Shown: positions 5,652-51,398, counted from the first letter of the stretch. The stretch is 51,398 bases of DNA from Cyanophora paradoxa CCMP329 (GCA_004431415.1 QPMI01000669.1:1-51398), one strand, 5' to 3'. Numbers and translations: made by a program. Notes: a model not told the origin generated them from the letters alone.

Positions 5652-5766
5652 CTCAGTGATATGGATTTCTCCCCTATGGGAGAAGCTCCCCCCTCCCCCC
5701 CCGCGCCCCCTTCCGCCTCCCCGGCCTCAGTGATATGGATTTCGAGTGGCTCAGTGATATGGATTT
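5652..5766 (+). repeat. Three copies of CTCAGTGATATGGATTT
   Basis: Exact 17-mer at 5652, 5726 and 5750, downstream of the kinase stop. Confidence 0.8.
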
Positions 5767-5865
5767 CCGAAAAGTTCGAGTACTTGGTTCATTCAGGTTT
5801 ATAGAAGTGGGATCCTGCCTACAGCACGTCTCGAGCTCTGTACAGGGGCGCGGCGGCTGCTCCAA

Positions 5866-31782: not shown

Positions 31783-31950
31783 GGGGGAGGGGTACGGCGA
31801 ATCCGCCGAGGCAGAGTCGCAGCTCGAGGCGACGACGCTCATGGTTCGCGTACCCCCCCCCGCGGACGGCGCGGGCCCAAATCGAAGTCGGGGTACAGAG
31901 TTTCAGGAGGCCCGAGCGAACGGAGGGGGGCGAGGGGCCGTCTACCCCCC
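31783..31950 (+). pseudogene. Diverged fragment copied from the AAA ATPase gene (exon-intron-exon)
   Basis: ggggaggggtacggcgaatccgccgaggc...ggaggggggcgaggggcc.tctacc matches ~21518-21680, including the intron. Confidence 0.8.
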
Positions 31951-33259
31951 CGCGCGACACCAGAGGTAAGGCAGGCTCGTTGTAAGGCCGCGGCGGCGGG
32001 CGCGGCGGGCTGGCCGCGCTGCCGGTCGGCTTAGCAACGGGGCACGCTCGCACCCGCGTCCGCCGCCGTCCCCGCGCACTGGATGGTGAACTGGGGACGG
32101 CCGCGGCTGCCGCGGCGGCCTGCGCCGGTGATCGCGATCTGCGACTCCCTGCGGCTCGGGCGCACCGGCTCCCGTCTGGTCCCCGATCGACGCGGGGCGG
32201 CCTCCTCCTCCCCCTCCCCCCCCCCCCCCCCCCCCGCGCCCCCCGCAGCGGGACGGGATCCGGACGGGTGCCCTGCGCGCGGGTGCCCGAATTTGGACCA
32301 TATGCGGGCATACGTATACGTATACGTAGGACCCGTAGGGAGAGTTTATTTTTACGTAGTTTCTTTTTTTTCGCTTTGCAATATTAATTGTCTTATAATT
32401 ACATTTCTCACCAATTGCACGCTATAGCTAGTTTTCAAGTTAAACATCGCAGGGGTAGTCAGCCCCGACGCGGGCCCTATCAAATGAAACGATCGATCGC
32501 ACTTGAGCTCGAGAGAACTGCGGGGCCGGCCCTGCGAGGCTGGCCGTGCTATTTACTGCGCTATCTATATATGTACATGTCTAGTCGACGTCATCAAAGA
32601 GCAGATATCCGATGGTCTCAAAAATCGATAATCGGGTAACGCTATAAATACATAATCCCGAATTTAAGTTCCGCAACGGGATCTGGCAGTACTAGAAACG
32701 AAACTGGGATCCCTAGTGGCCCTCGAATCGAAATAAAACAGCCGCCTTCGGCCTCTAAATAAAAACGATCGCGAGCTAACTAGCATGAAACCGGTACCAT
32801 CAAACTGCACTTGACTGTCTGTCTCTTCTCAAAGGGCCGGGGGCGCCCCTACAACTCACCAATGCAACTACAGTACAATCGCTGATCGCCCCGTTCGCTG
32901 ACTGAGAATCCCAATAAGAGTATATATGTGGGCCTTTGTGAAGCGTTGAGCTCTCGAGCTTGCCCCTTCGCTGTCAATGCATTGTTAACCCTCGGAGGTT
33001 GCATGAGTCACGCGTCGCGGAGGTTTGGGTGTTATATTGCGATCAGGTACACGCTGCACTAACAGGGGGGCTAGCACTAACCGACGCGGGGAGTAACAGC
33101 CGGTGTACCCCTCGGGGGGCCTCCCGGCCTCTAACGATGCTCAGGCTCTAACTGAATGCTGTACCCCCCGCTGTTACTGCCCGAACCTTCCGAACTTGCG
33201 TAATTCGGCCTCGCCCTGTACCCAGTGGCTGGTGTCGTCCATCCATTCGCGTACCTCCC

Positions 33260-34641
33260 TCTGACGCTTGAGTGACTCACGCTGCTCGGGGGTAGGGGAG
33301 GGGGGCCTTCGAGGCGGGGTGGGGAAGGGGGTACGGTGGCAAAATTCAGCCACTCGGGGGTATGCCGAATTCGCCGTGAACGATCCTCTGCGGTGTGAAA
33401 TACCGGTCGCTGCTCACGGCCAAGTGGAAGAACGCGCTCCTGAGCCCGGAGAGGAAGCGTGGTTGCATGAATGGCTGCTGGAGGGACTCGTCGCGCCAGG
33501 GGGCTACGAAATCAATGATACGCTGCTGTACCTGCGCGGGCAGGGCAAGGATCTGGCTCTTGCGGTTCGCAAAGGCCGTCCACAGCGCTTGCAGGTCGGC
33601 CCAATCGCCGTTCAGATCCCTGCGTTCGCGCCTCAGGTACGATCTCGGGTTCTCTGTCATACCCATCAAGCCCGCGGCCCTGATCATCTCCCTGTCCGGG
33701 AGCTCTCGCTCGTCGTGGAATTCGTCTCTAATCCAGCGCACAAGGTAGAGCACGCGCTCCATGAAGTTCTCCGCCGGCGAGCCGCCCCTGAGGACGTGCG
33801 CCTCCCCTCCAGCACTGCGTTCGCATCCTCCAAGTCCACGTTCCGCTGTCGAATCTCCCGTCCAGGTCGCCGTTGTTGTACAGCACGTCGGACTCGCGTG
33901 TTCGCGCCATGCTCGCGGCTCGGTGAGAATTTATACCTGTACCCCTACTCGCGGTCGGGGTACCTGTCGCCGGGCATCAGCCTCGCGCGCTTCCGCATCT
34001 CCGCCTCCCCGGGTAGCCAGTTCTTCGGGTCGTTGCTCCACTCCTCCCATTCGCGTATGTCCCGTCTGACGTCACGCGGGGCGGGGGCGTTTATCGTGGG
34101 CGGGCGGGGCTGGCAGGGCCTGGCGCGGGGGGTTGAGGCCCCTGTTCCACGAGTACTCGGGGTACTCTTCCCATCCCAGGGGTACCAGATTCATCGGAAT
34201 TGGCTCAACTTCGAATTGGGGCTTTTTGACGTGATAATCATAGTTTGTGACATACGCCGTCACAGCCGAGCGCAAGCGCGAGAGGTCGCGCAAATTTACG
34301 TCGTCCCATTGCGAGTCCCTTGCCTTCGCGTACCACTCGAGGATTTGCATGCGAATGTGGTCCGGGAGGGTCGAGAGTATGCTGAGCTTGGAGCCCAGGG
34401 CGAACCAGATGCGCTTGAACTCGTCGATAATCCTGCCCTCGTCGTGGCTCCGAACGTAATGGGCCCCGCCAGCGTTGTGATGCGAATCGAGCCACCCTGC
34501 CTGGGCCAGCTCTAGCACCGGCCAGGGTTGGCGCTGTCGATTCGGTCGCGAGGCCCGCTCAACCACCCAGCGTCTAAGGTCCTTGACCTGATCTATGAAC
34601 TGTGCGATCACGTCCTTGGGCGCTTCCTCTGCATCCGACAT
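33260..34641 (-). pseudogene. Hypothetical Trp/Arg-rich protein, disrupted, divergent from YqaJ
   Basis: MSDAEEAPKD.. (34641-34072) continues via frameshifts (DIREWEEWSNDPKNW.., one in-frame TAG ~33945) into ENFMERVLYLVRWIRDEF.. (33762-33346). Possible short GT-AG introns at the 3' end. Confidence 0.5.
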
Positions 34642-34691
34642 TTGTAATTGCACACATCAAGAAATTCTAAACGCTACTGCGAGGCTAAGCT

Positions 34692-35381
34692 ATGCATACC
34701 GATACAGATTGCGAGACTTTGCAACAGGGGAGCGCGGCGTGGCACGCGGCGCGCCGTGAAAAACTAACTGCATCTAATTTTGCGGCTGCGTGCGGCATAA
34801 ACCCCTGGAAATCCAGGGCCCGCCTGTGGGCGGAGCTAAGCGGGATAGCGGAGGAAAACAACTTTGACAACCCTGCCCTAACCTACGGGCACGACTACGA
34901 GCCCTTCGCGGTCTCTATCTACAAGGCACTGAACGATAACGTTGACATTAAACATACTGGACTGCACGAACATAAAGAAATGCCGTTCCTCGCCGGTAGC
35001 CCCGACGGACTTATAGGAAATGATAGAATTTTAGAGGTGAAATGCCCGTACAAGGGCGAACTTTATGATAGAGTTCCTACTTATTACATGCCGCAGTTAC
35101 AAGGACTTCTGGACATAACGGGCCGCGAGTGGGCCGAACTTTTTTGCTTCACTCCTCTGCGCGTGCAAACGTGGTACGTCAGGCGCGACGAGAGGTACAT
35201 CGAGCTCATGAGGAAGTGCTTACATCTATTTTGGATGCACGTCAAGGAGGGCACGCCGCCCGAGCCCTACAGCGATCGAATGAAGTTAGAGAACCTCAGC
35301 GAGGAGCAGGCGGCGCTGCGCGAGTTTAAGTCGTACGCCCTCCTCTCAGAGTCTAGGCAGACTACTTCTGTCCCAGGCTAG
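34692..35381 (+). CDS. YqaJ-like viral recombinase / lambda-type exonuclease (PD-(D/E)XK)
   Basis: QGSAAWHAARREKLTASNF, YGHDYEP, FLAGSPDGL, ILEVKCPY, YYMPQLQGLL, FW; intron-less. Confidence 0.95.
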   Translation: MHTDTDCETLQQGSAAWHAARREKLTASNFAAACGINPWKSRARLWAELSGIAEENNFDNPALTYGHDYEPFAVSIYKALNDNVDIKHTGLHEHKEMPFLAGSPDGLIGNDRILEVKCPYKGELYDRVPTYYMPQLQGLLDITGREWAELFCFTPLRVQTWYVRRDERYIELMRKCLHLFWMHVKEGTPPEPYSDRMKLENLSEEQAALREFKSYALLSESRQTTSVPG

Positions 35382-35890
35382 GTCTTTGGAATCTTAATAT
35401 AAATTTTCCGGGGACCCGGGACAGGCCTTGTCGGACATGGCAATGTCAGAACCTTCCCGATCATCTAGATCTATAATGATTCTAGGGAGGGTCCAGACAC
35501 ATCTCTTGTGCGGACCACTTCTGTCCCAGGTCTTTGGAATCTTAATATAAATTTTCCAGGGACCCGGACAGGCCTCGTCGAACAAACCTCTTCATGGGCC
35601 AAGATTTCGTGCATGCATCGGCCGCAGCTCATGCGAAAAATCATGTCTGATCCGATCCTGATCATGACGTCCTGCAAATTGAAGAATCGTCTGACCGGGA
35701 GTGTCCCGGGTCCCTGGAAATTTTATATTAAGATTCCAGAGACCCGGGACAGATCTACCTAGAGGGAACATCCAAAATGCTGTACCCCTCCCACCCCGTG
35801 ATCTTTCGAATTCAATCTGATGGGCCGACCTGAGTGACGGTGTCCTGGGTCCCGGAAAGTTTATATTAAGATTCCAAGGACCTGGGACAA
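35364..35890. repeat. Four 50-bp palindromic units (two forward, two inverted): putative replication origin
   Basis: TGTCCCAGGTCTTTGGAA-TCTTAATATAAATT-TTCCAGGGACCCGGGACA at ~35369(+, 5-nt insertion), 35522(+), 35702(-) and 35841(-). Confidence 0.9.
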
Positions 35891-35955
35891 GAGCAATGCA
35901 TTTTCGCACGACGTTGACATAGCCTGATCACGAGAGAAAAATGTACCCCGATCTA

Positions 35956-38900
35956 TCAAATCCGCCGATGGAGCAGCGAGTAGCAGTCGCAGAACAGATC
36001 TTTCACCTCCAAGTAATCCGGCCCCACGCCAGCCCAGCGCTGCCTTGCTTGGCGCTCTGCAACATCTTCGAGAGTGTCTTCCTTGACCCACGTGATGCAC
36101 TTGCGCTTGCGAGAGCCGGCGCCCTCCTGCCCTTCTCGGGTCCGTTTTTCCCCGGACCGGGCCCGTCTCACCCCCATGTACTTTTCGAGCAGGTACTGAA
36201 TCACCCGCCACGACTGCTGCGCAAGCTTGGCCTTCTCATTGTCCGATGCATCGAGTTTAGGGGCCCGCTCGTCCAGACTCTGCAGCACCGCGTAAGCCTC
36301 CCGGCCCTCCGGTGATGCGAGCGCCGCGTAGGCTTCGTCCGACCAAAGCATACAGCTGTCGCCGGCCAGCTTCTCGTACCCCGGCCCAAAAAGTCGCTTG
36401 AAAAGCTCCGCAACCTTCGAGACCCTGTGGTACTCAGTAGACGAGGCGATCTCGGCCATGTCGCCGCCGCGCTTCAGCACAAGGATGATCCGCGACATCA
36501 GCGGGATCGAGTAGAATGACTTCCACAGCCAGGCCACGTCGCTCTCGGTCAGCGCGCTTGCGTCCTTGGCCAGGAACGCAGCGGTCGCTAGGCGCGCGAG
36601 TGCAGCAACCTTCTCCACGTCGACCTTAGCAAGCGAATCGCGCGAATGCCACCAGGAGTCCAGCAGCATGTACAGTTCGGTGATGTCCAGGGGCGGAGAC
36701 TCGAGTACGTACTTGATCTCGCGCTGCCGCTGCTCCTTCTCCTCTTTCGGCCCCTTGTTTCCCTGATCCTCCGTGACCCGCACGTTCATCACGGCGCAGG
36801 TCGACAGCAGCCGCAGCCGCGCGGCCACGGCGAGGCGCCGCGTCGGCATGCCGGCCCGCCGACTCCCGTGATGGCTCGCCTTCAAGTCCAGATAGCGCTG
36901 CGTGTCTGCAGTGCTAGCTCTCTCATCATCGCTCTCACGCCAGTGCGCGGTCGCCTCGCCCACGCTGACGGAGGGCGCGGACGCGCGGCTCTTGCGCACG
37001 GCGACGAGCAGGTGCTCTCCGCCGGGCGGCTCGCCGCGCCTGCGCAGCTTTCTCACTCGGAACAGCAGCTGCACGATGTCGTCGGCCTCTAGCTGCGCGG
37101 GTTCGGCCTGGAAAACGCCGTAGATCTTGTCAAAGTGCGCTTCCGGAAAGTCCACGCCCGCCCCGAGCGCGGACGTCGCGATGAGCACGTCGCAGGCCTT
37201 GTACGCGCCCTCCTCCGAGACGTCGATCGACACTACGCGGACCGGGCCCTCGTTCGTGAAGCGCACGCTCTTCTCCTTCGCCTGCCCAACGATGAGCCAA
37301 TTGTGAACGGTGCGCCGCTGCCGTCCTCGGCCCTGCCTCGAGCTGAGTCACGTACTGAGCGCCGCCCAGGCTGAGCTGCTCCAGCGCCTGCTTCGAAATC
37401 TTGTCTGCTAGCTCATTCGCCTTGGCCGGCGTCTCCGCGATGATCATGGCCCGCGAGCGCCCAGGTCGGCACTGCACCATGATGTCCTTCTCGACGTGCG
37501 CCGGGCTGTCTGACACGCGCATCTTCCAGTCGCAGGTCCGGCGCGAGTTGTGCAGGAGCCCAAGGCGCGCCCCGCGCTCCAGCGCGGACTCCGCGAGGTA
37601 CGCGAGATCGACCGGCCGGACGAAGCCGTCCATCGCCACGATGCGCGAGGCCTTCATCACGTTTCGCATTAGCTGCACGCAGCGCGCGTTTCGGGCATTG
37701 ACCGCACGCCCATGTGCAGGCCGGCGGGTTCGAGGGTGCCGCTCGAAGTGAGGTGCTTCGTGAGGGAGGAGAGCTCGTCCAGCACGATCATCAGCGGCGC
37801 AGTCGACCAGCCCGCCCAGTCCTCAAGTACCTTGTGCAGCGAGTCGATCGTGATGACGACGCACCTGCACTTCGGATGGCGGTAGCCCCACTTGCCGTGC
37901 GTCCCATTTGAGCTCTCCGGCGGCTTCTGAATGTCCATGTACAGCACGGCGTCCTCAGGCAGGCCCACGTCATCCAGGCGGCGCTTCAGGTCGCGGGAGA
38001 AGGCGCGGCGGCAGGTCAAGAGGATCACGCGCCAGCCCCCCTCGAGGGCTGGCTTCAGGTACGTCTCGATGAGGGCCTGCGTCTTCCCCGTGTTGAGGCC
38101 CGAGCAGATGACGTCGACCTGGGCGGCCCCCGGCTCCAGCGGACCGAACGTGGAGGTGAGCAGCCCTGGATCGCGCGTCAGGTAGTCCGTATCCACGACC
38201 TTCACGCAGTGCGGTGTCAGGCCCGTCGATTCGAGTGCGATCAGGAGCGACGGGAGGGCCACGTCGAGCGCCACGGGCTGGGACGGGTCCGTCACGTAAG
38301 ACGCCGCCGTCTCGCTGCAGCTCCCGTCTCCAGCTCCCCCTCCTGCTCCACCTCGACACCGTGCGCCCGAATCGCGATTCTGAGGGCCGGCGATCCTGGC
38401 TGATCGCTCATCTTCAGGGTGATTGTTCCGTCGGGCTCGACTGCAATGTCTTGAACGCGGCGGGGGTCATTCAGGCTGATCTCAGTGCGCAACGCCGCCC
38501 CGCCCGCCAGATCTCGTCCCTCACCAGCTTGTTCTCGCGCAGGAGGCTCAGGAACCGATCGAAGTCCGGGAGCGGAGCCTGGGCGTCGCCCGTCAAGCTC
38601 AGCGGGGGTGGGGCGGCTCCTTGCGGGGGAGGAGCTCCTGGCGCCGCAGTCCCGAGCAAGCCCCCGAGCTGCGGCGCCCTGCGGCCCTGCGCCACCCCCT
38701 GCGCCGATCCCTGCGTCGGCCCCTGCAGGACGTAGGCTCCTGTGTCGTCCCCCCCGAGCTCCAGGCCGCTAGATGTCCCCAGCAGCCAGGTCGCAAAGGC
38801 GCAGGCCTCCGGGCTCTGCAGGACGTAGGCAGCCTTGAGCCCGTTGTGCGATGTTCGAGAGAAAGTGAGGCCTCCGAAGCTCTCCGCGCATGCACGGGCG

Positions 38901-39120
38901 GCCGCGGTGCTCGTCTCGTCTTCCGCGTCGGAGAAGTGCTTGGACATGATGTGCGGCGGGTGAAAGATACAGAAGACCATTCCGAGATCAGCGCTGCAGA
39001 CCTTCTGGACGCAGACGAGGGGGAAGCGAGTGAAGAAAAGCTCTTCTTGCGGGCTCAGGTCCACGGGAGTTACCCCGGCAGACGGGAGAGTAGACTGTCG
39101 GAGCACGTCGAGGTGGCCAT
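35956..39120 (-). CDS. Herpes UL9-like origin-binding SF2 helicase (~1050 aa, several frameshifts)
   Basis: Ordered motifs SGLNTGKT, LLTCRRAF, VVITIDSLHKV, IVLDELSSLTKHL, RIVAMDG, LIATSALGAGVDF..HFDKIYG and IVQLLFRVR parallel recalled UL9/Herpes_ori_bp motifs (PMGSGKT, VSCRRSF, VQVESLHRV, VLDEV, IIAMDA, VGLSFD..HFD, YQSLGRVR). Spread over ORFs 38471-39106, 38292-38492, 37669-38295, 37130-37678 and 35956-37266. Confidence 0.85.
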
Positions 39121-39299
39121 GCTCTCGGGTTAGGCCTGCTGTTTCGTGTTAGGCTTGGAAAATTTTCAGTGGCACCGGCCGGAAACTGCACACCTTGAGA
39201 ACTCGAACTCGAACTCCAAGGCTCGGTGAATTGGCGCTAGCTGCACTGTCGACGTCGACTGTCGGACCGTCGACGTCGGACTTCGGATGTCTCGTCTTC

Positions 39300-39349
39300 T
39301 GTCCCAGGTCTTTGGAATCTTAATATAAATTTTCCAGGGACCCGGGACA
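39300..39349 (+). repeat. Fifth copy of the 50-bp palindromic unit, upstream of the helicase
   Basis: tgtcccaggtctttggaatcttaatataaattttccagggacccgggaca. Confidence 0.95.
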
Positions 39350-39609
39350 CTCTGGTCTGACGACGCTGCAGCTCGAAGCGCTCAACTGGGTCCGGTTGAC
39401 GGCACACAGGCTATCAGGGTGCCAGGCCTAGCCTAGTACGTAGGCTGACCGTCGGACCAGTACTGGCGGTTCAGTTGAAGCCGAGTACTACTAGCGCTAG
39501 CTATAGCGCCAGCGCTAGCTGTAGGCTAGTACTAGTACTAGATCGAGAGACGGTACGGCGCGCCACAGCTAGCGAGCTCGCGCTCGCTCGCCTTTGCGCT
39601 GAAGCTTAG

Positions 39610-41344
39610 AAAATTTTGGGCTCACGCGGTCGTTCCACGTGTTCTGTCCGGACAACCTGTACCCCAGCTGTCCAGCCAAGTAGTCAGAGCTCTCCAATCC
39701 TGCGGCGCTTGGGCCCGTGCTTCTCAGAGCACTTGATGGAGGCCAGCGTGTGCGTTCTGTGCTCTCGGGGAGCCGCCGCTTCGTTCCCGCCGATGCAGAA
39801 GTGCGTCTCGGTCGGCGACCCCTCTCTCCGCGGAGCGGCTAGCTGGAGAGCTCTCCCGATGCCGCGCGCTTACACTGCGGTGCGCAGGCTCGGTTGCTGT
39901 GGCCGGCAACCTTCGAGAGCTCGATGGCACCCAAGCTGAACCACCTCGCCGCATCGCGGAGGTGCTGGCTCCCTCTTTCGCAGCTCTTTCGCTTACACTT
40001 ACACTTTCGCTAGACCGTGCCGCACAGCCTCGCGCTCATTTCCCCCACGTTCGCAGAACTTCGGCGTCGGCGCAGGTTCCGGGATCTGCGACCGCGCCTC
40101 CCGCAGCTCGAGCCGGCGTCTGCGGCGACCCGCGCATGCATCTAGATCCTATTCTGAAACCCGTGCGTCGATCCGGGTCCCGGGCTCGCGTTCCTGCGCC
40201 TCCCGGACCCTCACACTGCTCCTGTTTGCATCCTAGCTAAGACCTTCCTCGCCCGCAGCCGGTCTCGTCCTCGGCACATTGTGAGCGGCATCAGTGGAGC
40301 TGGAGTTCCGCACTTTATGCAGGCCCGTGCGCCCTTTCCCGCCCCGCCCCGCCCAGCCCCGCCCCGCCTCGCGTGCGCTATAGCTAGCTAACCCTGTCGC
40401 GCGCGCCGCAGAGGGTTCGTAGCCGGAGGGCTCGCAGGCCGCGGCCCGGACACCTCCGCCGCCGTCGGCGCCGACATCGAGAACGGCCGGCTGGACGAGA
40501 CCCTCGCCGGCTTCGGCTCCTGGTGCCGCCCCTACTCCTACAAGCTCGGCGGCGTCTGGCAGACCTACATCCGCGGCATCGTCCCCAAGGCCCCGCTCTC
40601 CCTCGGCGAGAGCCAGCCGGCGCTGGAGGCGATCGCGATCCCCGTCGCCCAGTTCAAGGACCCGGCGCCCGACGTCGGGCCCTTCCTCGTCAAGCCCCAC
40701 ACCAAGGGCAAGGGCAAGCGCACCCGCAACTCGGCGCCGGCCTTCCTCCCGCCCCAGCCCCCCGCCACGGCCCCCCAGCAGCGCCCCGGCCAGCAGCGCA
40801 TCGACGAGATGCTGCCGCGCCAGGTCCGGCCCCGCGTACCCCCCGCCTTCCCTGTACCTCCCTCCCCCTCGCCCCGTTCCTGATCCAAGGGCAGGGTACC
40901 TCGGCCTCCCCCGCGAGCGCCGACGGCCCCAGCCCCGTCCCCGGCCCCGGCCACGTCCTCTCCGCGATCCAGGGCTTCGGGGCCCAGCAGGAGGCCGAGC
41001 GGCAGGCGCTGGCGGCGCGCCAGGCGCGCGAGGCGGAGGCGCGGCGCCAGGGCCGCCGGGCCCAGCGCCTCCAGCGCACCCTCGCCTTCCGCGCCGAGCT
41101 GGAGGCGGGCTTCCGCGCGGATCAGATCGCCGGCGCGGAGGCCTCGGAGCGCTGGCGGGCGTTCGAGGCGGAGACGGCGGGGCTGGCGAAGGGCCTCGGC
41201 TACAGCTACCGGCGCGTGCCCGTGCCCAAGGACTACGCGTCGGCCGCGGCGCTGGAGGCCTCGCGGGCGGAGATCGACGCGGCGGAGGACGTGGTGGCGG
41301 AGACGGAGGCCCACGCCGAGACCTTCCGCCACCTCCACCACTGA
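39610..41344 (+). CDS. Intron-containing hypothetical gene inside the element (5' part degenerate)
   Basis: Exon ~40411-40823 (ADIENGRLDETLAGFGSWCRPYSYKLGGVWQTYIRG..), intron 40824-40894, exon 40895-41344 (coiled coil). Upstream exon-like blocks carry gtgcg donors and a TAG. Confidence 0.5.
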
Positions 41345-41393
41345 GCTCTCCGAGGCGGTATTTTTTCTCAACCCCTTCCAATTCGGTCCCGCG

Positions 41394-41585
41394 ATGGCCT
41401 TCGCTGACAGCTACCCACAGCACTACACCCTTGGAGCCCTCGCCGCGACCCTCACCTGGCTCCTCGGCGGCACCCCCACCGCCTCGGCCGTCATCGGCGT
41501 GGGCTTCGGCTACGCCGCCAAGACCCTCTACGCCCCCGGCTCCGTCTCGATGGCGACGGCCGGCATGCGCCCCGCCGGGCGTTAA
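41394..41585 (+). CDS. Small membrane protein (63 aa)
   Basis: ATG ORF with two short hydrophobic Gly/Ala helices and an upstream TTTTCT motif. Confidence 0.65.
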   Translation: MAFADSYPQHYTLGALAATLTWLLGGTPTASAVIGVGFGYAAKTLYAPGSVSMATAGMRPAGR

Positions 41586-41692
41586 CTCTCCCTTTTCAAA
41601 GTTCCATTCCCCCCTTTCCCTTTTCAAAGTTGCGACGTCCTTTTGAGTCCGTTGGCATTTAAATTTTCTTCATCGTCTGTACACGTCTAAAC

Positions 41693-42186
41693 ATGCCCAA
41701 CGCCGTAGAGAAGCTGTTGTGTACGGTGTTCAAATCGGACTCGCGCTGCAGCAAGATCGGCGAGGCTGCCAAGGGCGGGGCGGGGCGAAGGCCGGCGGCG
41801 GGGCGGAGGGGCCTAAGATAAGGGGCGCGGACCCGGCGCCGCCGGCGCTAAAGTCGATTAAGGCTGCGGGCAAGGGCCGCGGCGTCGGGCCCCTGCCCCT
41901 CGTGGCGATCGCCCGGGCCAGCGCGAGGCGGCGCACGCGGCGACGGCGGCGCTGGCCTCGCAGCAGCAGAGGGAGGGGCGCCGCGCCTGAGCGCCGGCCT
42001 CTGGTCGCAGCCTGCGCCCGCGCGCGAGTACGGCGTCAGCGCTTACTTCGACGGCGCGAACGAGCTGAGCCGCCAGGAGATCTGGGCCTGGAGGCGCGGC
42101 GCGCGGTCGACGGGCACCTGCCGTTGCTCGTGGCGCTCGGCGGCTCGCTCCTCATGGTCTGGTACCTGCGCGGCTTCGCGATTTAG
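41693..42186 (+). CDS. Small protein with C-terminal transmembrane helix (frameshifted)
   Basis: MPNAVEKLLCTVFKSDSRCSKIG...CAREYGVSAYFDGANELSRQEIWAWEARRAVDGHLPLLVALGGSLLMVWYLRGFAI, reconstructed using both duplicate copies. Confidence 0.6.
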
Positions 42187-42215
42187 ATAGATTTTCGAAG
42201 CGCTAGCTAGTAGAG

Positions 42216-42542
42216 ATGAGCTGGCTCGACGCGCTGCTCACCAAGACCTTTGGGCCCAAGGGCGCGCCGCGGCTGCAGTTCGGTGAGCTCAACGCCGCGA
42301 TCGGCGCCACAGTCGAGATGAAGAACCGCGAGAACGTGCTGCGCGGCGACGGAGGCGCGTGGCGGACATTGCGGCGGGCGCGCTGGGCTCCGCACTCACC
42401 GCACCGGGCAAGGCGGGCCGCGCGCTCACGGACGTGGCCGAGCGCTTCTGGCACTGGCTCAAGGTTGCCGTGGTCATCGCCGCAGCGGTTGTGGCGGGTC
42501 TCCTGGTGCTCGAGGCTCGCGCGCTATTTTCTAAACGCTAGG
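42216..42542 (+). CDS. Small membrane protein (108 aa; intact copy at 45579-45905)
   Basis: MSWLDALLTKTF...WHWLKVAVVIAAAVVAGLLVLEAR; copy 1 has a 1-nt deletion. Confidence 0.7.
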
Positions 42543-42557
42543 TAAAGCGAGCGAACC

Positions 42558-42960
42558 ATGCCCCGCGGCGGCTCTTCCCCCGTGTCTCCTTCGCTGAGAA
42601 CGAAGTCGCCGCTACCCCCTGGAGCCCGGCGTCAAGCTGGAGCGCGCGAACGCAGTCTCCGTCAAGAAGGCCAAGCGCGCGCTGGTTCTAGAAGTCCCCA
42701 AGACCGCCTCGCAGTTCCTTCCCACGTCCGAGTACGACGGCACGGAAGATACGGAGAAGGTTGCATTCAACAAGCGCAAGACGTACAAGGCGATACGCGA
42801 GGGCCAGCTGCTGCCCACGGACGCGGTTCCCGGGCTGCCGGGCACCACGGCCGGCGAGCTGCTCGTGCGCAACCTGCGCCTGCAGTACGTCTCCCGCCTC
42901 CGCCGCTCCAAGGCCAAGAAGGCGCGCCTGGACTCGGGCGATAGCAGCTCTAGCTCGTAG
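42558..42960 (+). CDS. Basic hypothetical protein (copy at 45922-46325; frameshifted near the start)
   Basis: Strong GC3 frame VSFAENEV..VKLERANAVSVKKAKRALVLEVPKT..LVRNLRLQYVSRLRRSKAKK, with ATTTTCTA upstream. Confidence 0.6.
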
Positions 42961-42976
42961 GGCTCTGTACTCAATA

Positions 42977-43261
42977 CTACCAGTTCCTGTTCCTATCCCA
43001 GAGCACGACTCGGGTAAAGGGCACGGTCATAGCGAACATGAACTCGGCAAACTTGGAGAAGTTCATGAGGGTCCCTAGGCGCGGGTCCTCCCAGTAGATA
43101 GCTTCGCGCAGGGACTCGTAGATGCGCATGAGGGAGCGCTCGTTCTCGGTCGCGAAGGCGTCGGAGGGCTCGTCGGGATCCGGATCCGAGAGCTCCGAGT
43201 ACTCGTCCGAGCTGCCAGCGCTCTCGACGCCTGCGGCCGGGTCGGGCGAGGGGTCAGCCAT
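42977..43261 (-). CDS. Small acidic protein resembling a small giant-virus protein family (copy at ~46342-46624)
   Basis: Acidic N-terminus, then SLMRIYESLREAIYWEDPRLGTLMNFSKFAEFMF. Family resemblance is from memory only. Confidence 0.6.
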   Translation of the reverse strand: MADPSPDPAAGVESAGSSDEYSELSDPDPDEPSDAFATENERSLMRIYESLREAIYWEDPRLGTLMNFSKFAEFMFAMTVPFTRVVLWDRNRNW

Positions 43262-43287
43262 TCTTTGCTGGTAGAAGGGCTAGAAAA

Positions 43288-43625
43288 TCACGGGCGCCGG
43301 TACTCCATCGAGTCGCCGCGCCAGTACTTGTTGCCGGAGGCGAGCAGCTTCATCGGCTCGCCCGTCGAGTCGTGCGTCCAGGCCTCGCCCGTCCAGACGG
43401 CCGTGCCGCGTCCTCTAGCTTGAGGCGGTGGCCCGCCTCGAGCCGATCGCCGTTGAGCATGCGCCGGCCATGAGCGCCAGGTCCCACTCGGTGAGGCCGC
43501 GCTGCTCTTCGGGGTGAGGCCGCGCTCGACGCGCTCGGGCTGGCGCGCCTCGCGCTCCATGCGGCTGAGGCCCACAGGAAGAAGATCGGCAGCGCAAAGG
43601 CCATGAGATCTAGCAGGGCCTCCAT
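43288..43625 (-). CDS. Small protein with N-terminal membrane anchor (copy at 46651-46988; frameshifted)
   Basis: MEALLDLMAFALPIFFLVGLSRM...GHRLKLEDGGTAVWTGEAWTHDSTGEP, reconstructed from both copies. Confidence 0.6.
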
Positions 43626-43635
43626 TGGGCAAGAC

Positions 43636-43925
43636 TTAGAAAAGGTTCCGGGCCAGGCCCGAGAGCTGCGGGCCCAGGCGCCGGGCGGCGTAGTAGAGCG
43701 CGGCGGCCGCGGCGGCCAGGATCAGAAGGCGCGGCGGGCCGCGCGCGGGCTCCTCCAGGGTCAAGTCCACGGTCTCTGGCTCGCGGCCGGCGTCGCCAGG
43801 ATCTCGGGCTCGGAGCTAAGGACTTGGGCCCGCGGCGGCGGCGCTGCTTGGGGCGGAGGCGCGGCGGCGGCGGAGAGAAGGTCCTCGGGCTCCTGCTTGA
43901 TACCTGCGCAGTCAGTAAAGTCCAT
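43636..43925 (-). CDS. Small protein with C-terminal transmembrane helix (copy at ~46999-47289)
   Basis: MDFTDCAGIKQEPED...DLTLEEPA..LLILAAAAAALYYAARRLGPQLSGLARNLF*; frameshifted. Confidence 0.55.
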
Positions 43926-43991
43926 GCTTGCTGGGTACCTCGGAAAATTGTGGGAGGTGCCCGGCGGCTGCGAACGTAGGATGGGGGAGAA

Positions 43992-44556
43992 GTGACGCGG
44001 ACGCGAATACGTCATAGTCGAATACGTCATAGTCCAAAACCTGGACTCGGGACTCGGCCCGGGCCCTGGGGAGGGGTACATGTTATGTCCAAATGTCCAA
44101 ATGTCCAAATGTCCAAATGTCCAATTGAAAGGTTGCGGAGGTTGCGGACGCGTCACAAATACGTCATAGTCGAATACGTCATAGTCCAAAACCTGGACTT
44201 GGGACCTGGGCCAGACTCTCGCCAAGTTTCAAATAATAATACTGTACCCCTGTTATCTGCAAGCTTATCTTATCGTTATCGTGTCACCTATCCTATCCCG
44301 ATCCTATCGCTATCCTTTCGCGATCGCTTGACTACACTATTGCATTCATTGCTTTTGAATGTAGTTAATGTCATAGCAACTTGAACATGATGTCATGATG
44401 ATTTCAAGTTAAATACCGGGGTACGGTGTTTTTGTTCAAGTCTCTTTTTTTTACCGGCAGGGCCCGGCCGAGTCCCGAGTCCAGGTTTTGGACTATGACG
44501 TATTCGACTATGACGTATTTGTGACGCGTCCGCAACCTCCGCAACCTTTCAGTTAA
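43992..44556. repeat. Inverted-repeat regulatory/origin-like region (copy at 47358-47925; single arm at ~48712-48788)
   Basis: Unit (AATACGTCATAGTC)x2-CAAAACCTGGACTYGGGAC at 44006(+), 44158(+) and 44472-44520(-). (TGTCCAAA)x5 at 44086-44125. An AT-rich ~230-bp centre lies between the long inverted arms. Confidence 0.9.
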
Positions 44557-47500
44557 TTAATTAAGCACTGGGCTAGCGCTAGGCTAGCTAGATATCGATA
44601 CCAGCTAGCTAGCTCAGCTCTACCCTGCCCAAGTTGATGGTATCTAGCAGCGCCTGCTCCTCTAAGTCTGCACCGCCTCCTCCTAGCGCTAGCGCTAGCT
44701 CGATACCGCCTCCAGACTTGATCTCCCTTGGCTTCAGCCACCGAAGGGGCTCAGGCCACCTCCTCCTGGTGAAGCCGGTATCGTTGCGCTTGTCCAGCTT
44801 GAGGTAGCGGTAGGGCGCCGGCGCCGGCCAGTCGGGCCTGTGGCTGCTGGCCTCCTTGGCTATGTCCTTGGGCCTACGCGGAAGCAGGTCGGCCTTGGCC
44901 TTGGCCTTCTGCAGAGGGCCCAGCGCCTTGAACTTCGGTGCCTTCGTCGCCGGCAGGGCCTTCGGCTGAGGCTTCGGTGCCTTCTGCGCCTTCGTCTTCG
45001 GCTGCGGCTGCGGCTTTAGCTGCTTCGATTTCGGCATACTTCTTGCTCATAAATGAGAAAAGCGCCTCGAAGTCGGCTTTTATCTCCTCCTTGGTCCAGG
45101 AGGACTCGCGCTGCAGCAAGATCGGCGAGGCTGCCAAGGGCGGGGGCGGGGCGAAGGCCGGCGGCGGGGCGGAGGGCCTAAGATAAGGGCGCGACCCGGC
45201 GCCGCCGGCGCTAAAGTCGATTAAGGCTGCGGGCAAGGGCCGCGGCGTCGGGCCCTGCCCCTCGTGGCGATCGCCCCGGCCAGCGCGAGGCGGCGCACGC
45301 GGCGACGGCGGCGCTGGCCTCGCAGCAGCAGAGGGAGGGGCGCCGCGCCTGAGCGCCGGCCTCTGGTCGCAGCCTGCGCCCGCGCGCGAGTACGGCGTCA
45401 GCGCTTACTTCGACGGCGCGAACGAGCTGAGCCGCCAGGAGATCTGGGCCTGGGAGGCGCGGCGCGCGGTCGACGGGCACCTGCCGTTGCTCGTGGCGCT
45501 CGGCGGCTCGCTCCTCATGGTCTGGTACCTGCGCGGCTTCGCGATTTAGATAGATTTTCGAAGCGCTAGCTAGTAGAGATGAGCTGGCTCGACGCGCTGC
45601 TCACCAAGACCTTTTGGCCCAAGGGCGCGCCGCGGCTGCAGTTCGGTGAGCTCAACGCCGCGATCGGCGCCACAGTCGAGATGAAGAACCGCGAGAACGT
45701 GCTGCGCGGCGACGGAGGCGCGTGGGCGGACATTGCGGCGGGCGCGCTGGGCTCCGCACTCACCGCACCGGGCAAGGCGGGCCGCGCGCTCACGGACGTG
45801 GCCGAGCGCTTCTGGCACTGGCTCAAGGTTGCCGTGGTCATCGCCGCAGCGGTTGTGGCGGGTCTCCTGGTGCTCGAGGCTCGCGCGCTATTTTCTAAAC
45901 GCTAGGTAAAGCGAGCGAACCATGCCCCGCGGCGGCTCTTCCCCCGTGTCTCCTTCGCTGAGAACGAAGTCGCCGCTACCCCCCTGGAGCCCGGCGTCAA
46001 GCTGGAGCGCGCGAACGCAGTCTCCGTCAAGAAGGCCAAGCGCGCGCTGGTTCTAGAAGTCCCCAAGACCGCCTCGCAGTTCCTTCCCACGTCCGAGTAC
46101 GACGGCACGGAAGATACGGAGAAGGTTGCATTCAACAAGCGCAAGACGTACAAGGCGATACGCGAGGGCCAGCTGCTGCCCACGGACGCGGTTCCCGGGC
46201 TGCCGGGCACCACGGCCGGCGAGCTGCTCGTGCGCAACCTGCGCCTGCAGTACGTCTCCCGCCTCCGCCGCTCCAAGGCCAAGAAGGCGCGCCTGGACTC
46301 GGGCGATAGCAGCTCTAGCTCGTAGGGCTCTGTACTCAATACTACCAGTTCCTGTTCCTATCCCAGAGCACGACTCGGGTAAAGGGCACGGTCATAGCGA
46401 ACATGAACTCGGCAAACTTGGAGAAGTTCATGAGGGTCCCTAGGCGCGGGTCCTCCCAGTAGATAGCTTCGCGCAGGGACTCGTAGATGCGCATGAGGAG
46501 CGCTCGTTCTCGGTCGCGAAGGCGTCGGAGGGCTCGTCGGGATCCGGATCCGAGAGCTCCGAGTACTCGTCCGAGCTGCCAGCGCTCTCGACGCCTGCGG
46601 CCGGGTCGGGCGAGGGTCAGCCATTCTTTGCTGGTAGAAGGGCTAGAAAATCACGGGCGCCGGTACTCCATCGAGTCGCCGCGCCAGTACTTGTTGCCGG
46701 AGGCGAGCAGCTTCATCGGCTCGCCCGTCGAGTCGTGCGTCCAGGCCTCGCCCGTCCAGACGGCCGTGCCGCCGTCCTCTAGCTTGAGGCGGTGGCCCGC
46801 CTCGAGCGATCGCCGTTGAGCATGCGGCCGGCCATGAGCGCCAGGTCCCACTCGTGAGGCCGCGCTGCTCTTCGGGGTGAGGCCGCGCTCGACGCGCTCG
46901 GCTGGCGCGCCTCGCGCTCCATGCGGCTGAGGCCCACCAGGAAGAAGATCGGCAGCGCAAAGGCCATGAGATCTAGCAGGGCCTCCATTGGGCAAGACTT
47001 AGAAAAGGTTCCGGGCCAGGCCGAGAGCTGCGGCCCAGGCGCCGGGCGGCGTAGTAGAGCGCGGCGGCCGCGGCGGCCAGGATCAGAAGGCGCGGCGGCC
47101 GCGCGCGGGCTCCTCCAGGGTCAAGTCCACGGTCTCTGGCTCGCGGGCCGGCGTCGCCAGGATCTCGGGCTCGGAGCTAAGGGACTTGGGCCCGCGGCGG
47201 CGGCGCTGCTTGGGGGCGGAGGCGGCGGCGGCGGCGGAGAGAAGGTCCTCGGGCTCCTGCTTGATACCTGCGCAGTCAGTAAAGTCCATGCTTGCTGGGT
47301 ACCTCGGAAAATTGTGGGAGGTGCCCGGCGGCTGCGAACGTAGGATGGGGGGAGAAGTGACGCGGACGCGAATACGTCATAGTCGAATACGTCATAGTCC
47401 AAAACCTGGACTCGGGACTCGGCCCGGGCCCTGGGGAGGGGGGTACATGTTATGTCCAAATGTCCAAATGTCCAAATGTCCAAATGTCCAATTGAAAGGT

Positions 47501-47929
47501 TGCGGAGGTTGCGGACGCGTCACAAATACGTCATAGTCGAATACGTCATAGTCCAAAACCTGGACTTGGGACCTGGGCCCAGACTCTCGCCAAGTTTCAA
47601 ATAATAATACTGTACCCCTGTTATCTGCAAGCTTATCTTATCGTTATCGTGTCACCTATCCTATCCCGATCCTATCGCTATCCTTTCGCGATCGCTTGAC
47701 TACACTATTGCATTCATTGCTTTTGAATGTAGTTAATGTCATAGCAACTTGAACATGATGTCATGATGATTTCAAGTTAAATTACCGGGTACGGTGTTTT
47801 TGTTCAAGTCTCTTTTTTTTACCGGCAGGGCCCGGGCCGAGTCCCGAGTCCAGGTTTTGGACTATGACGTATTCGACTATGACGTATTTGTGACGCGTCC
47901 GCAACCTCCGCAACCTTTCAGTTAATTAA

Positions 47930-48642
47930 TTAAGCACTGGGCTAGCGCTAGGCTAGCTAGATATTCGATACCAGCTAGCTAGCTCAGCTCTACCCTGCCC
48001 AAGTTGATGGTATCTAGCAGCGCCTGCTCCTCTAAGTCTGCACCGCCTCCTCCTAGCGCTAGCGCTAGCTCGATACCGCCTCCAGACTTGATCTCCCTTG
48101 CTTCAGCCACCGAAGGGCTCAGGCCACCTCCTCCTGGTGAAGCCGGTATCGTTGCGCTTGTCCAGCTTGAGGTAGCGGTAGGGCGCCGGCGCCGGCCAGT
48201 CGGGCCTGTGGCTGCTGGCCTCCTTGGCTATGTCCTTGGGCCTACGCGGAAGCAGGTCGGCCTTGGCCTTGGCCTTCTGCAGAGGGCCCAGCGCCTTGAA
48301 CTTCGGTGCCTTCGTCGCCGCAGGGCCTTCGGCTGAGGCTTCGGTGCCTTCTGCGCCTTCGTCTTCGGCTGCGGCTGCGGCTTTAGCTGCTTCGATTTCG
48401 GCATACTTCTTGCTCATAAATGAGAAAAGCGCCTCGAAGTCGGCTTTTATCTCCTCCTTGGTCCAGGATGTCATCTGAGTCGGGTCACCTGAGAACGGCG
48501 CATCGAACGCCACGTGGAGCGATTTGCAGGCCTGAGCTATCATTGGCTCCGGCCAGGCCAGCTCGATCAGCTGAAGGTAGATACTGAGGGCCTTGTCGAG
48601 CTTGGCGCCCTGGGAGACTAGCTGGGAGATGGCGGGCTCCAT
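47930..48642 (-). CDS. Hypothetical protein (5'-truncated copy at 44561-45101); 3' end carries TAG hypermutation
   Basis: MEPAISQLVSQGAKLDKALSIYLQLIELAWPE...RYLKLDKRNDTGFTRRRWPEP.. Confidence 0.65.
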
Positions 48643-48877
48643 GGTACTGGATTAAGCAGCTAGCCGGGGTTCAGAAAATGGCGCCAAGTCGAGCTTATTT
48701 TTTACCGGCGGGGCCTGGGCCGAGTCCCGAGTCCAGGTTTTGGACTATGACGTATTCGACTATGACGTATTCGCGTCCGCGTCACTTCCCCCCCCTCTTC
48801 AGGTGAGCGCTCACCTGACCCTCACCTGAACGGCCTCAAAACCGCAGCCGCGCCGCGCCCTCGCTCACACTTCACAG

Positions 48878-49150
48878 CCAAGAGAAATCAAGAATGTGCG
48901 CCCCAAGTACGAGACCTGCTGCCTGACCTTCGGCATCTTCGAGTACGAGGCCATGGACGAGGATCTCGACGAGAACGGCGAGATCTGCTTCAACTACTGC
49001 AGGCTGCTGCGCAACATCTCGCTGGAGTGCCGCAAGGGCGACTGCTTCCAGCACATCATGCTCAATCCCGCAAGAACGAGATCACCCTGTACGCCTCGCC
49101 AGCCCCAGCGCCAGATTTAGACTCTCGATATTCGCGTAGCCGTGATTGAG
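48878..49150 (+). CDS. Small Cys-containing beta-rich hypothetical protein, possibly with a spliced 5' end
   Basis: EIKNVRPKYETCCLTFGIFEYEAMDEDLDENGEICFNYCRLLRNISLECRKGDCFQHIML..EITLY. No in-frame ATG at the start, but a candidate intron 48803-48877 (gtgagc..ctcac..cag). Confidence 0.55.
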
Positions 49151-49290
49151 GCTCCCCCTCCCCAGTGAGACGAATGAACACGTGTTTTACCTGAATCACC
49201 TGAGCGCTCACCCGAGGTCAGCCTGAAGTCAGGTGGGGCGGCCTTAAATATTTTCTAGCGCTAGGCTGATCGCACACTAAGCTCAGACAC

Positions 49291-50065
49291 ATGCCACCGT
49301 CCGCAACGCCACCGAGATCGACCCCGCCAAGCTCGCCTTCGAAATGATGCCAACGCCGCATCAAGGCCAAGTACGACGGCCTGCAGGGCCTCATGATGTA
49401 CGCGCGCCATGTCACGATCAACCCGTGCATCACACCGAGCAAGGCAAGGCGTGAGCGACGAGAAAAGGCCTTCGTCATGGAAGAAAACGGCGGATTTTAC
49501 ACGCTGGACTCACCGATCTCAGCGCCGTCGACGGCCAGACGAACCCAGCCGCGGACGAGTTCCTCAAGCTGCTGGAGGCCCTGGACGCGAAATTCTGCGA
49601 GTTCGTGCAGCAGAACCAGGCCAAGCTCAAGGTCTCGCCGGGCGCGCCCTCTCCAAGGATCAGATCTCGGTGCTGCAGACGCCCAGCGTGCGCATCAAGG
49701 TCGACAAGGAGTCGGGCCAGGCCTTCTACAAGTACTCAACATGCGCATCCGCACGCAGACGATGGCGGGCAAGCGCAAGACGATCCCAGTCGTCGACATG
49801 TCCAACTACCTCATCACGAGCGCGCCACCATCGCACCGGAGACCTGGTGGCGGCCCTCGTTAAATCGACACCGCCTACGCCATCCCGAGGGCAAGTTCGC
49901 TCAAGTGGTCCTTCCTCGCCGTGCAGCAGTGCAAGGTCGGCGCCTTTCGCTTCGCCGCGCACGCCCGAGCTGGCCTTCAAGCCCTACGACAACGAGGCCG
50001 ATTTCGAGCCCTACCTAAACCCCGAGTCTATGTACACCACCCCATGCAGTAGTTTAGACGAATAA
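49291..50065 (+). CDS. T7 gp2.5-like / NCLDV-type OB-fold ssDNA-binding protein (many frameshifts)
   Basis: Reconstructed: EIDPAKLAFE..EFLKLLEALDAKFCEFVQQN..LSKDQISVLQTPSVR..LNMRI..IPVVD..GDLVAALVKID.AY..KF.LKWSFLAVQ, with an acidic tail. Confidence 0.65.
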
Positions 50066-50104
50066 ATGAAATTCTCTGGTGCAATTGATTACAAGCGTTT
50101 ACAA

Positions 50105-50906
50105 TCAGAGGCCGTTGAACTTGCCGCCCACCGCCCTGGGCTCCGCCGCCGTCGAGGCCGCCGCCTCCGTCACCTCCTTCATCATCTCCGGGTTCGCGTT
50201 GGCCGCGTGCACCGCCAGCACCGTCTGCACCAGGGCCATCCCCAGGCGCGCCTCGGGCCCCAGGGTCACGTAGCGCGAGTACTTAATCACCAGCTCCTCT
50301 AAGATCGGCTGCACCTGGTCCATGGAAGAGAGCGTCGCCTGCCCGAGCCCGTCTAACTTCAGGCCGATCGGATCGTACGCTTTGTTAAGGTGCTCCAGCG
50401 AGTGCATGCCCGCGATCAGAAAGAGGCGCGCCGCCTCCAGCGAACCCCGCGTGCTCAGCTCGCGCTGAATTTCCTCGTACTCTTCCTTCAGCTCGTCCAG
50501 CGGCGTGGCGAGGCTCAGCTTCTTCGTGGACGTCAGCTCGCCCCCGAACGAGCGCCTGTACTGCGCGATCTGCCGCAGAACCTGCTTCTTCTCGTCCACG
50601 TCCACCTGCGCCTCGTCGCGCGGCCTCTCCTGCAGGTCGATCCCCAGCGCCTTTTCACGCTCTGCTCCTTCTTCTTCGTCATTTCGATGTGCTCCTGCAC
50701 GCTGAAGCTCGCGCCCTTGCTCGGCGCCGTCGGCGGCACCGTGGGCCCGTCGCCCGGTAGCGACGTCTGTCGGCCTTCGGCGCCTTCTCGCCCTTTTCCT
50801 TGCCTTCCTTCGCGGGGCGGCCCTTCTTCCGAGGCTGCGGGATCCCCACCGGGTTCGGCCCGTCCACGGCCAGCGCGTCGAAGCCCAGCATCGCCGAGGG
50901 GTCCAT
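50105..50906 (-). CDS. Conserved Nucleocytoviricota helical protein (recalled as DUF5767-like), frameshifted N-terminal half
   Basis: LDELKEEYEEI..FLIAGMHSLEHLNKAYDPIGLKLDGLGQ..LEELVIKY..LGPEARLGMAL..HAAN matches the recalled pattern 'IEFLN..FDPF.IKLDGWSE...FEEL.EKY...PE.KL...H..N'. Confidence 0.75.
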
Positions 50907-50941
50907 GGTTACGCTTGCCCCTTAGAAATTTCCTCGGATTT

Positions 50942-51271
50942 TTACTCCGACGTCAGCTCGACGAAGAGCTCGATGTAAAGCCACAGTTTCTCGCGCAGCT
51001 CGGGCCCGCTCCCGTAGAAGAGCGAGCGCACGGCCGAGGCGTACTCCTGCGGCAGCTTCTCGAAAACTCCGTCGTCCCGCGCCTTAATTAATTCGGCCTC
51101 CGCGTTGATGTGCCTCCTAAAGAGAACGATGACCGCCGTGGCGCCTATGCCGCGCAGCGACTGGATCTGCGCCCGCACCCCCGGCTCCTTGGCCTCCGGC
51201 TCCAGCAGGTCGAGGAAGCGGCCCCAGCGCGCCTCGATCTGCTCGCCCAGCGTCGCCTCCGTCGCTGCCAT
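50942..51271 (-). CDS. Small helical protein of a giant-virus-type family
   Basis: RFLDLL..LFRRHI..LIKARDDGVF..LREKLWLYIELFVEL follows the recalled 'I..RD..FF...K.IW.Y...L..L' pattern; intact 109-aa ORF. Confidence 0.7.
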   Translation of the reverse strand: MAATEATLGEQIEARWGRFLDLLEPEAKEPGVRAQIQSLRGIGATAVIVLFRRHINAEAELIKARDDGVFEKLPQEYASAVRSLFYGSGPELREKLWLYIELFVELTSE

Positions 51272-51293
51272 GTCGCTAAGGGGGCTTTAGAAA

Positions 51294-51398
51294 TTAGCGG
51301 GCCAGGGATGCCGCCGCCTTTTGGTACATTTCCGCCATGCGTGCGTTGGTTTCCCGTCGGATGTTCTTCTGTCTGTCCTGAGTCTCCACGACCATGGC
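51294..51398 (-). CDS. 3' end of a further element gene (partial)
   Basis: ..VVETQDRQKNIRRETNARMAEMYQKAAASLAR*; the stop overlaps the ATTTCTAA motif of the next gene. Confidence 0.5.
   Translation of the reverse strand, partial: AMVVETQDRQKNIRRETNARMAEMYQKAAASLAR

Follow-up and report, generated by a model that had tools for sequence, protein, structure and literature searches.

Here we describe a virus-derived element in a 51,398-nucleotide stretch of the genome of the glaucophyte alga Cyanophora paradoxa CCMP329 (GCA_004431415.1, QPMI01000669.1:1-51398; hereafter the window, meaning this whole stretch at full length). What the window probably holds is one copy, cut at its right, of an element present many times in the genome: a gene-dense left portion of 15 kb that starts at about 32,925 and reaches the last base, 51,398, beside host genes of this GC-rich alga. 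We favour, as a likely if not firm interpretation, a high-copy endogenous virus of mriyavirus grade, that is, a small virus replicating in the nucleus and integrated many times. Because the genes that define the group lie outside the window, membership of the Mriyaviricetes is not established. Mriyaviruses, which by one proposal are similar to giant-virus ancestors, are known almost only from metagenomes; if our interpretation is true, a family of this type gains a cultured algal host with public DNA, RNA and methylation data, in which replication, integration and latency become testable, and the capsid counts and giant endogenous viral elements (GEVEs) published for this alga need reinterpreting.

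A multi-copy family with a probable left end

With near-identical gene models on at least 24 distinct contigs of one genome, the element is a multi-copy endogenous virus family and not the one insertion described by a first-pass annotation of the window. Two genes near the right edge, one encoding a DUF5767 protein and one cut by the edge itself (the edge gene), were used as queries. Of the 17 clusters found with DUF5767, 14 (39 member sequences) belong to a single eukaryote gene set and three come from ENA/Logan at 61-78%; the edge-gene search returned 14, of which 13 came from the same gene set (31 members) and one from Logan. One or two of the gene models match the window exactly and could be its own. 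On one contig the gene numbers of the two differ by two, and fused gene models preserve their order. Relatives 55-78% identical were also seen on short ENA/Logan contigs (P0007, P0010, P0011 and P0027), which places the lineage outside this genome as well.

Short-read data from 14 presumed DNA runs, representing one organism and 14 studies, each contain 73-76% of the sequence words of 32000-41700. In one of these (X14), contig depth was 4.7 over 31480-32060, 17.9 over 32251-32840, 90-101 over 35542-40329 and 640-1013 over genes shared among copies, and in another (X1) it was 96.6 in the flank, 487-522 over the window's helicase variant and 4000-8000 over the shared genes. Relative to the flank, this would amount to 5-20x for the helicase variant and 60-200x for the shared genes, a rough guide that gives copy number as a range; contig depth, as the tool cautions, is not copy number. 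Across the block 35400-40330, short-read depth falls far below that seen elsewhere in the element, and alignments of diverged helicase variants are patchy, indicating that the replication module varies among copies.

The same data locate the left end. Summed X1 depth climbs from 156 to 6647, with the jump near 32921-32950; an X1 contig covering 32251-32950 (depth 96.6) stops at this point, a contig from X15 begins at 32950, and a contig from X18 departs from the window at 32927 with 238 letters unaligned. The depth jump and the X18 exit together mark a TA-rich stretch as the likely left end, so that the edge formerly placed at 33200 probably lies near 32921-32928. To its left, Pfam identified two leucine-rich repeat (LRR) genes and one kinase fragment (one match, with 89 of 117 flank frames scanned), and an intron-rich AAA ATPase gene was read by eye near 22260-24730.

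The view that the element is an endogenous virus in an algal chromosome is upheld by these LRR and kinase matches in the flank and by the copies on at least 24 contigs; the junction is partly covered by short-read contigs, but it is not formally bridged, no contig among those listed having 31 letters on each side. That gap, together with an error-rich window bearing a probable mis-assembled tandem duplicate, speaks for a free or episomal virus that persists in the culture and was linked to host sequence by chimeric assembly. We regard such a chimera as very improbable: many diverged variants lie on the 24 contigs, the same share of the element recurs in 14 studies, and an X1 contig that begins in the flank continues without mismatch for 23-29 letters of the element.

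Gene content of the element

Eighteen gene spans, hand-picked from open reading frame (ORF) calls and in several cases split by indels, cover 72% of the element's 15.1 kb when the tandem duplicate is counted once, bearing out the earlier description of at least 15 short, packed genes. The host-like GC content was likewise recovered (0.62-0.63 inside the element versus 0.64 for bases 1-32920). Thirty-two element frames were scanned against Pfam; indels break the frames, which weakens the absences reported from them. Three significant matches emerged, all in agreement with the first-pass annotation: YqaJ (E 2.6e-28), Herpes_ori_bp/UL9 (E 1.6e-8, frame 37672-38466 on the minus strand) and DUF5767 (E 2.8e-13). 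The YqaJ protein also matches exonucleases in the PDB and mimivirus R354. As that annotation had noted, no polymerase, integrase or RNA polymerase family appeared in the 32 frames, nor did pPolB, TV-Pol, superfamily 1 or 3 (SF1/SF3) helicases or a methyltransferase, and neither PolB, RNA polymerase nor other giant-virus core genes were found in the 15 kb of the element or the flank frames scanned.

Other labels fared less well. The proposed T7-like single-strand DNA-binding protein (SSB) had no relevant match in Pfam, PHROGs, NCBIfam or the PDB, and we retain it as a presumed SSB by motifs read by eye, a label that these tools did not confirm. The second helical protein, of 109 amino acids (aa), had no family match that would justify calling it NCLDV-type (NCLDV, nucleocytoplasmic large DNA virus); a search limited to longer proteins gave three matches, all of them fused gene models of the same genome. 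Instead of about five small membrane proteins, a membrane helix was clear in three of the 15 ORFs tested and weak in one.

Upstream of the genes, the motif WTTTCT/WWTTCT lies 10-45 nt before 11 of 16 chosen starts compared with 11 of 293 other ATGs, the motif having been chosen post hoc as the best of five patterns. It is likely a viral promoter.

The edge gene and its viral relatives

A connection to a metagenomic virus comes from the edge gene, whose 370-aa product is visible beyond the right edge through fused gene models. A profile of the protein searched against 1.84 billion proteins gave 12 remote matches (E 2.6e-9 to 4.4e-4), of which 11 were aligned and one was dropped (P0044, 1739 aa, matching in seven short stretches). 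An alignment of four remote proteins then recovered three metagenomic contigs, L001-L003, which are probably one virus; a 1444-nt overlap at 98% identity joins L002 to L003, and together they span 18 kb. With the profile of the edge-gene family, the homologue on L003 reaches E 1.8e-15, and the element's YqaJ matches that of L002 at E 6.5e-14. Among the 22 ORFs scanned on L002/L003, Pfam identified Capsid_N (4.4e-8), YqaJ (7.3e-20), DUF5906 (5.5e-8) and OTU, with Capsid_NCLDV at 7.1e-6, under its cut-off; the capsid gene is on L003, and the gene set of the contigs includes an SF3 helicase. Judged by its predicted genes, this set corresponds to the one given for mriyaviruses in PMC11253617 (here and below, statements about cited papers refer to the accessible parts of those papers), and the virus would accordingly be called mriyavirus-like. 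The 18-kb piece formed by L002 and L003 carries an OTU protease gene. Mriyaviruses encode either an SF3 or a UL9-like superfamily 2 (SF2) helicase, and the element has the latter by its Herpes_ori_bp match.

Two structure models of the edge protein (predicted local distance difference test, pLDDT, of 42, which is poor, and 64) returned the same sole viral match, the unnamed A0A2H4YB92 (E 5.5e-3 and 8.7e-5); the second had no match in the PDB. By a resemblance of motifs, which is not a result, the gene is a candidate Mriya_51, one of the mriyavirus core genes Mriya_1, 48, 50 and 51. Among its copies P0020-P0030 the central 130 residues are almost invariant and the C-terminal third varies widely, a pattern that hints at a region which diversifies because it is exposed at a surface or interacts with the host. 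Viral contigs yielded nothing when scanned with DUF5767 (as one sequence and as an alignment), with the edge protein (single, aligned and as remote relatives) or with the L003 capsid; a metagenome scan with DUF5767 and a scan of prokaryote genomes were likewise empty, and the ESM Atlas gave no usable match.

Alternative origins and relationship to described viruses

Several observations weigh against assigning the element to a mriyavirus-grade virus. Capsid, ATPase, viral late transcription factor (VLTF), RuvC, HUH and integrase genes have no match among the window's own element frames; the first-pass annotation likewise placed the capsid module beyond the right edge. The connection to L002/L003 rests on one virus and on two genes, the edge gene and YqaJ, which is widespread: DUF5767 against L002:5202 was not significant (probability 0.4%), nor was the 109-aa protein against L003:1763 (E 0.6). 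On the contigs themselves the Pox_A32 (0.0085) and RuvC (0.035) matches are weak and the HUH-like and VLTF3-like ORFs were read by eye, and L001-L003 do not appear in the accessible tables of PMC11253617. According to the same paper the mriyavirus PDDEXK nuclease is apparently non-orthologous to YqaJ, and mriyaviruses are described as having no integration genes, which Zora, VC134 and VC218 do have (bioRxiv 10.64898/2026.06.19.733378). The proposal of a small NCLDV relative, possibly of mriyavirus type, gains support from the edge-gene link, which depends on one gene and one virus, and from the occurrence of a UL9-type helicase in 8 of 60 representative mriyaviruses, four of them without HUH (PMC11253617 supplement).

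Large giant viruses, too, have YqaJ (mimivirus R354), UL9-like helicases and DUF5767, as would be expected if the element were a piece of a long giant-virus insertion whose copies arose through segmental duplication or transposition. Viral gene clusters of C. paradoxa have moreover been called GEVEs and reported as methylated (PMC12344493). We nevertheless consider a GEVE fragment unlikely, since the dozens of copies have a constant gene order and a variable helicase module, depth steps sharply at a single place, the edge-gene homologues led to a contig of a small virus on which genes for capsid, ATPase and nuclease lie within 18 kb, and no giant-virus metabolic or transcription gene was seen in the 32 frames. 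The published GEVEs resemble the element in being clustered genes with Nucleocytoviricota best matches, the methylated genes being mostly silent, but they are presented as giant-virus insertions, and the accessible text gives neither an element structure nor a copy family.

Similarly improbable, in our judgement, is a conventional polinton-like virus (PLV), or else a helicase transposon or satellite without a capsid, which acquired NCLDV-type accessory genes and keeps its integrase and any capsid beyond the edge. PLVs typically have many copies and a discrete end, and their replication modules are freely swapped; the alga's capsid genes were counted among PLV-type elements (PMC10120064), and a PLV of C. 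paradoxa is mentioned in PMC12220804. Yet the 15 kb, which takes in one end of the element, reveals no gene for pPolB, TV-Pol, an SF1/SF3 helicase, a methyltransferase, or an integrase of RVE or tyrosine recombinase type, the published capsids score best against NCLDV capsids (PMC10120064), and the viral neighbourhood of the edge gene is mriyavirus-like.

PMC10120064 lists 366 capsid genes for Cyanophora paradoxa in two 'new' clusters (272 and 94), accounting for about 7% of the genome (Tables S2 and S4), with HHpred matches of 92-98% to ascovirus, iridovirus and PoV capsids; these data are from the supplement, the main text making no mention of the alga. The element's capsid genes have probably been counted there already, undescribed. 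The clusters (MMPC 21 and 29 by column count) share with the element the alga, copies in the hundreds and an NCLDV-like character, and differ in that the survey counted capsid genes alone. As a further point on the unfavourable side, none of the six capsid-bearing Table S2 contigs is among our 24, both lists holding representatives only.

Compared with the Mriyaviricetes and in particular the Yaraviridae, as described in PMC11253617, the element has a dense, presumably small genome with no polymerase seen in its left 15 kb (mriyavirus genomes are 35-45 kb and have no DNA or RNA polymerase), a UL9-related helicase (SF2 helicases of this kind occur in Yaraviridae), a PD-(D/E)XK nuclease, small membrane proteins, an edge gene found on a mriyavirus-like contig and a putative T7-like SSB, such as 'Gamadviridae' carry. 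It differs in its integration in many copies, its clear YqaJ nuclease, the lack of a visible primase motif before the helicase, the palindromes around the helicase, its spliced antisense RNA and its glaucophyte host, which the accessible supplement does not include. The NCLDV-like PLVs Zoravirus (VC102), VC134 and VC218 are PLV-sized, mriyavirus-related and able to integrate (10.64898/2026.06.19.733378), but their Mriya48, HUH, RVE or tyrosine recombinase genes are not in the window, and the accessible text names no UL9-type helicase for them. We found no description of the element in literature on Cyanophora or glaucophyte mriyavirus, Yaravirus, polinton-like or endogenous viruses, or on antisense transcripts of such elements, most subscription papers and bioRxiv supplements being outside this coverage.

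A putative initiator helicase, palindromes and a presumed spliced antisense RNA

The helicase provides a view of how such an element may replicate. Beyond its Pfam match, both halves match CyRepA1, a plasmid initiator, under its cut-off (1.5e-7 and 1.8e-6), and the only PDB rows returned were four UL9 structures (E 0.02-0.04); no primase motif was seen in it by eye. It is surrounded by copies of an AT-centred palindrome, a cluster of four at its 3' side and a fifth beyond the other end. Of three copies folded, two from the cluster at 35378-35889 gave z scores of -7.2 and -3.4, with none of 200 shuffles folding as well, and that at 39298-39352 gave -4.4. The cluster is predicted to act as an origin or promoter.

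Opposite the helicase, short-read joints define six introns on the plus strand, beginning with GTGCG in four cases and GTACG or GTGCT in the others. Among the joints listed (15 of 76), five occur in both presumed RNA runs (X15 and X18, from studies P15 and P16) and one in X18 alone, and none occurs in DNA runs X1 and X14, whose contigs cross four of the six sites unbroken. Since the helicase is on the minus strand, where the introns read CT..AC and their removal would delete Walker A and another conserved helicase motif, the spliced RNA is antisense to the helicase. RNA contig pieces at 37758-38055 match the window's helicase variant without mismatch, and the joints at 37012 and 37135 sit in a contig from X18 that represents a diverged variant, making splicing common to variants. 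The RNA contigs start at 35882 and 35928, beside the palindrome cluster; because contigs cannot reveal a transcription start, this only hints at a promoter in the repeats. The longest stop-free stretch on the plus strand is 206 aa spliced versus 217 aa unspliced, a comparison that bears on a possible overprinted protein and is spoiled by indels in the window.

Two other sources of the joints were considered and ruled out: introns of the helicase itself, by the CT..AC ends and the removal of Walker A, and processed DNA copies, by the DNA runs without joints and the contigs crossing four of six unbroken. Two further points count against a dedicated antisense RNA: the classification of X15 and X18 as RNA runs is the tool's guess, no listed run being on record as RNA, and identical joints would arise if a permissive host spliceosome processed read-through RNA.

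Herpesvirus UL9 is an SF2 origin-binding helicase that opens oriS, an AT-centred palindrome, and spliced antisense latency RNAs lie opposite key viral genes in herpes simplex virus (HSV LAT) and human T-lymphotropic virus 1 (HTLV-1 HBZ). These viruses belong to unrelated realms, and the comparison is one of function only. The antisense RNA may keep the virus dormant. We tentatively propose a fuller scheme, which we think doubtful as a whole: a mriyavirus-grade provirus mass-integrated in up to about 270 copies in the glaucophyte nucleus, with a UL9-like initiator acting on palindromic origins and latency imposed by a conserved spliced antisense RNA that runs from the same repeats across the initiator gene, in the manner of a herpes- or HTLV-like switch. 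The mechanism predicted under our favoured interpretation, which is the likelier, is as follows. While the virus is integrated, a promoter in the 35378-35889 cluster would fire into the helicase gene from its 3' end, the host spliceosome would process the antisense RNA, and interference or double-stranded RNA would suppress the initiator. When the virus is activated, the AT-centred palindromes would serve as origins, bound and opened by the UL9/CyRepA-like helicase; the viral genome would be copied by host DNA polymerase, the YqaJ exonuclease and putative SSB would drive recombination-dependent replication, and transcription by host RNA polymerase II would use the TTTCT motif. Genes for capsid, ATPase and late factors would lie beyond the right edge, the capsid genes among the 366 NCLDV-like ones of Cyanophora, and integration would proceed through an integrase beyond the edge or by recombination at the TA-rich site. 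The antisense spliced RNA is in any case a checkable lead on how protists, or their proviruses, silence such elements.

Probable window errors and a tandem duplicate

The interval 41737-45101 recurs at 45102-48468 (3.37 kb) with two substitutions and 34 gap columns in 3383. This is the pattern expected from one sequence read twice with long-read errors, and the duplicate is likely an assembly artefact or a very recent duplication; the short-read joints listed neither confirm nor exclude its seam. About seven genes are consequently counted twice, inflating the gene count. At the window's frameshifts the short-read contigs contain extra letters, in the SSB-like gene at nine places, each in at least three of four runs, so that the frames were probably broken by errors in the window's sequence rather than by gene decay.

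Other features

Features of the element and their coordinates (strand given where applicable)
Feature	Position	Strand	Basis and remarks
Probable left junction, lower-copy flank to multi-copy element	32921..32928		TA-rich; short-read contig ends and depth
Orphan gene, probably frameshifted, 60- and 138-aa pieces	33346..33910	-	ORF; no significant family
Shared upstream motif WTTTCT/WWTTCT	33910..51295		10-45 nt 5' of gene starts
Orphan gene, 189 aa	34072..34641	-	ORF; family searches
YqaJ / lambda-type exonuclease, 229 aa	34692..35381	+	Pfam
50-nt imperfect palindrome with AT-rich centre, four copies (two forward, then two reverse)	35378..35889		repeat family D1
UL9/CyRepA-like SF2 origin-binding helicase, ~1000 codons, frameshifted	35956..38949	-	Herpes_ori_bp; start uncertain
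Six GT-AG introns, 48-61 nt	37012-37065, 37135-37195, 37897-37944, 38059-38107, 38361-38417, 38485-38542	+	joints in presumed RNA runs
Fifth palindrome copy	39298..39352		55-nt inverted repeat, 95%, with 35699-35753, around helicase
Orphan ORFs, one or two	40392..41344	+	ORF; splice-like signals upstream (40163-40412)
Four small genes	41394..42960	+	63 aa, weakly hydrophobic; gene at 41694 with C-terminal membrane helix; 108 aa, membrane helix; ~135 aa, basic
Three small genes	42977..43925	-	94 aa, acidic; membrane protein from 43625; short ORF from 43925
Tandem duplicate of 41737-45101	45102..48468		self-comparison; two genes truncated at seam
Second repeat family, nested inverted repeats of 85-90 nt, 94-98%	47347..48795		doubled 15-nt core; encloses AT-rich spacer and gene 48103-48642(-)
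Gene within second repeat family	48103-48642	-	ORF
Small Cys-rich acidic orphan gene, frameshifted	48894..49149	+	ORF; short-read differences
Putative OB-fold single-strand DNA-binding protein, three frames	49298..50065	+	motifs by eye
DUF5767 protein, ~267 aa	50105-50908	-	Pfam
109-aa helical protein	50942..51271	-	ORF
Edge gene, C-terminal 34 codons of 370-aa protein	51293..51398	-	100% match to P0032 residues 144-177

The promoter-like motif of the element was present at just one of 20 L002/L003 genes. Splice-like signals on the sense strand at 40137-40412 (GTGCG donors, a branch-like site and CAG acceptors) possibly belong to an intron-bearing viral gene; no RNA joint for them is among those listed. 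The second repeat family is partly duplicated at 43980-44554, its 15-nt core forms a weak hairpin (z -1.1), and five tandem copies of an 8-nt unit stand between its forward repeats at 47452-47494 and 44084-44120. The gene at 48894 is flanked by a 20-nt palindrome-like motif (48799-48818 and 49196-49215). X1 and X14 contigs jump over 48941-49175, from which it follows that some copies are without this gene or have a replacement. In the flank, the host LRR genes at 3003-3776 and 30172-31263 are related, in opposite orientation, with 75-82% DNA identity, and a low-copy repeat is found at 21515-21682 and 31781-31952 (84% identical), one copy lying about 1 kb left of the junction.

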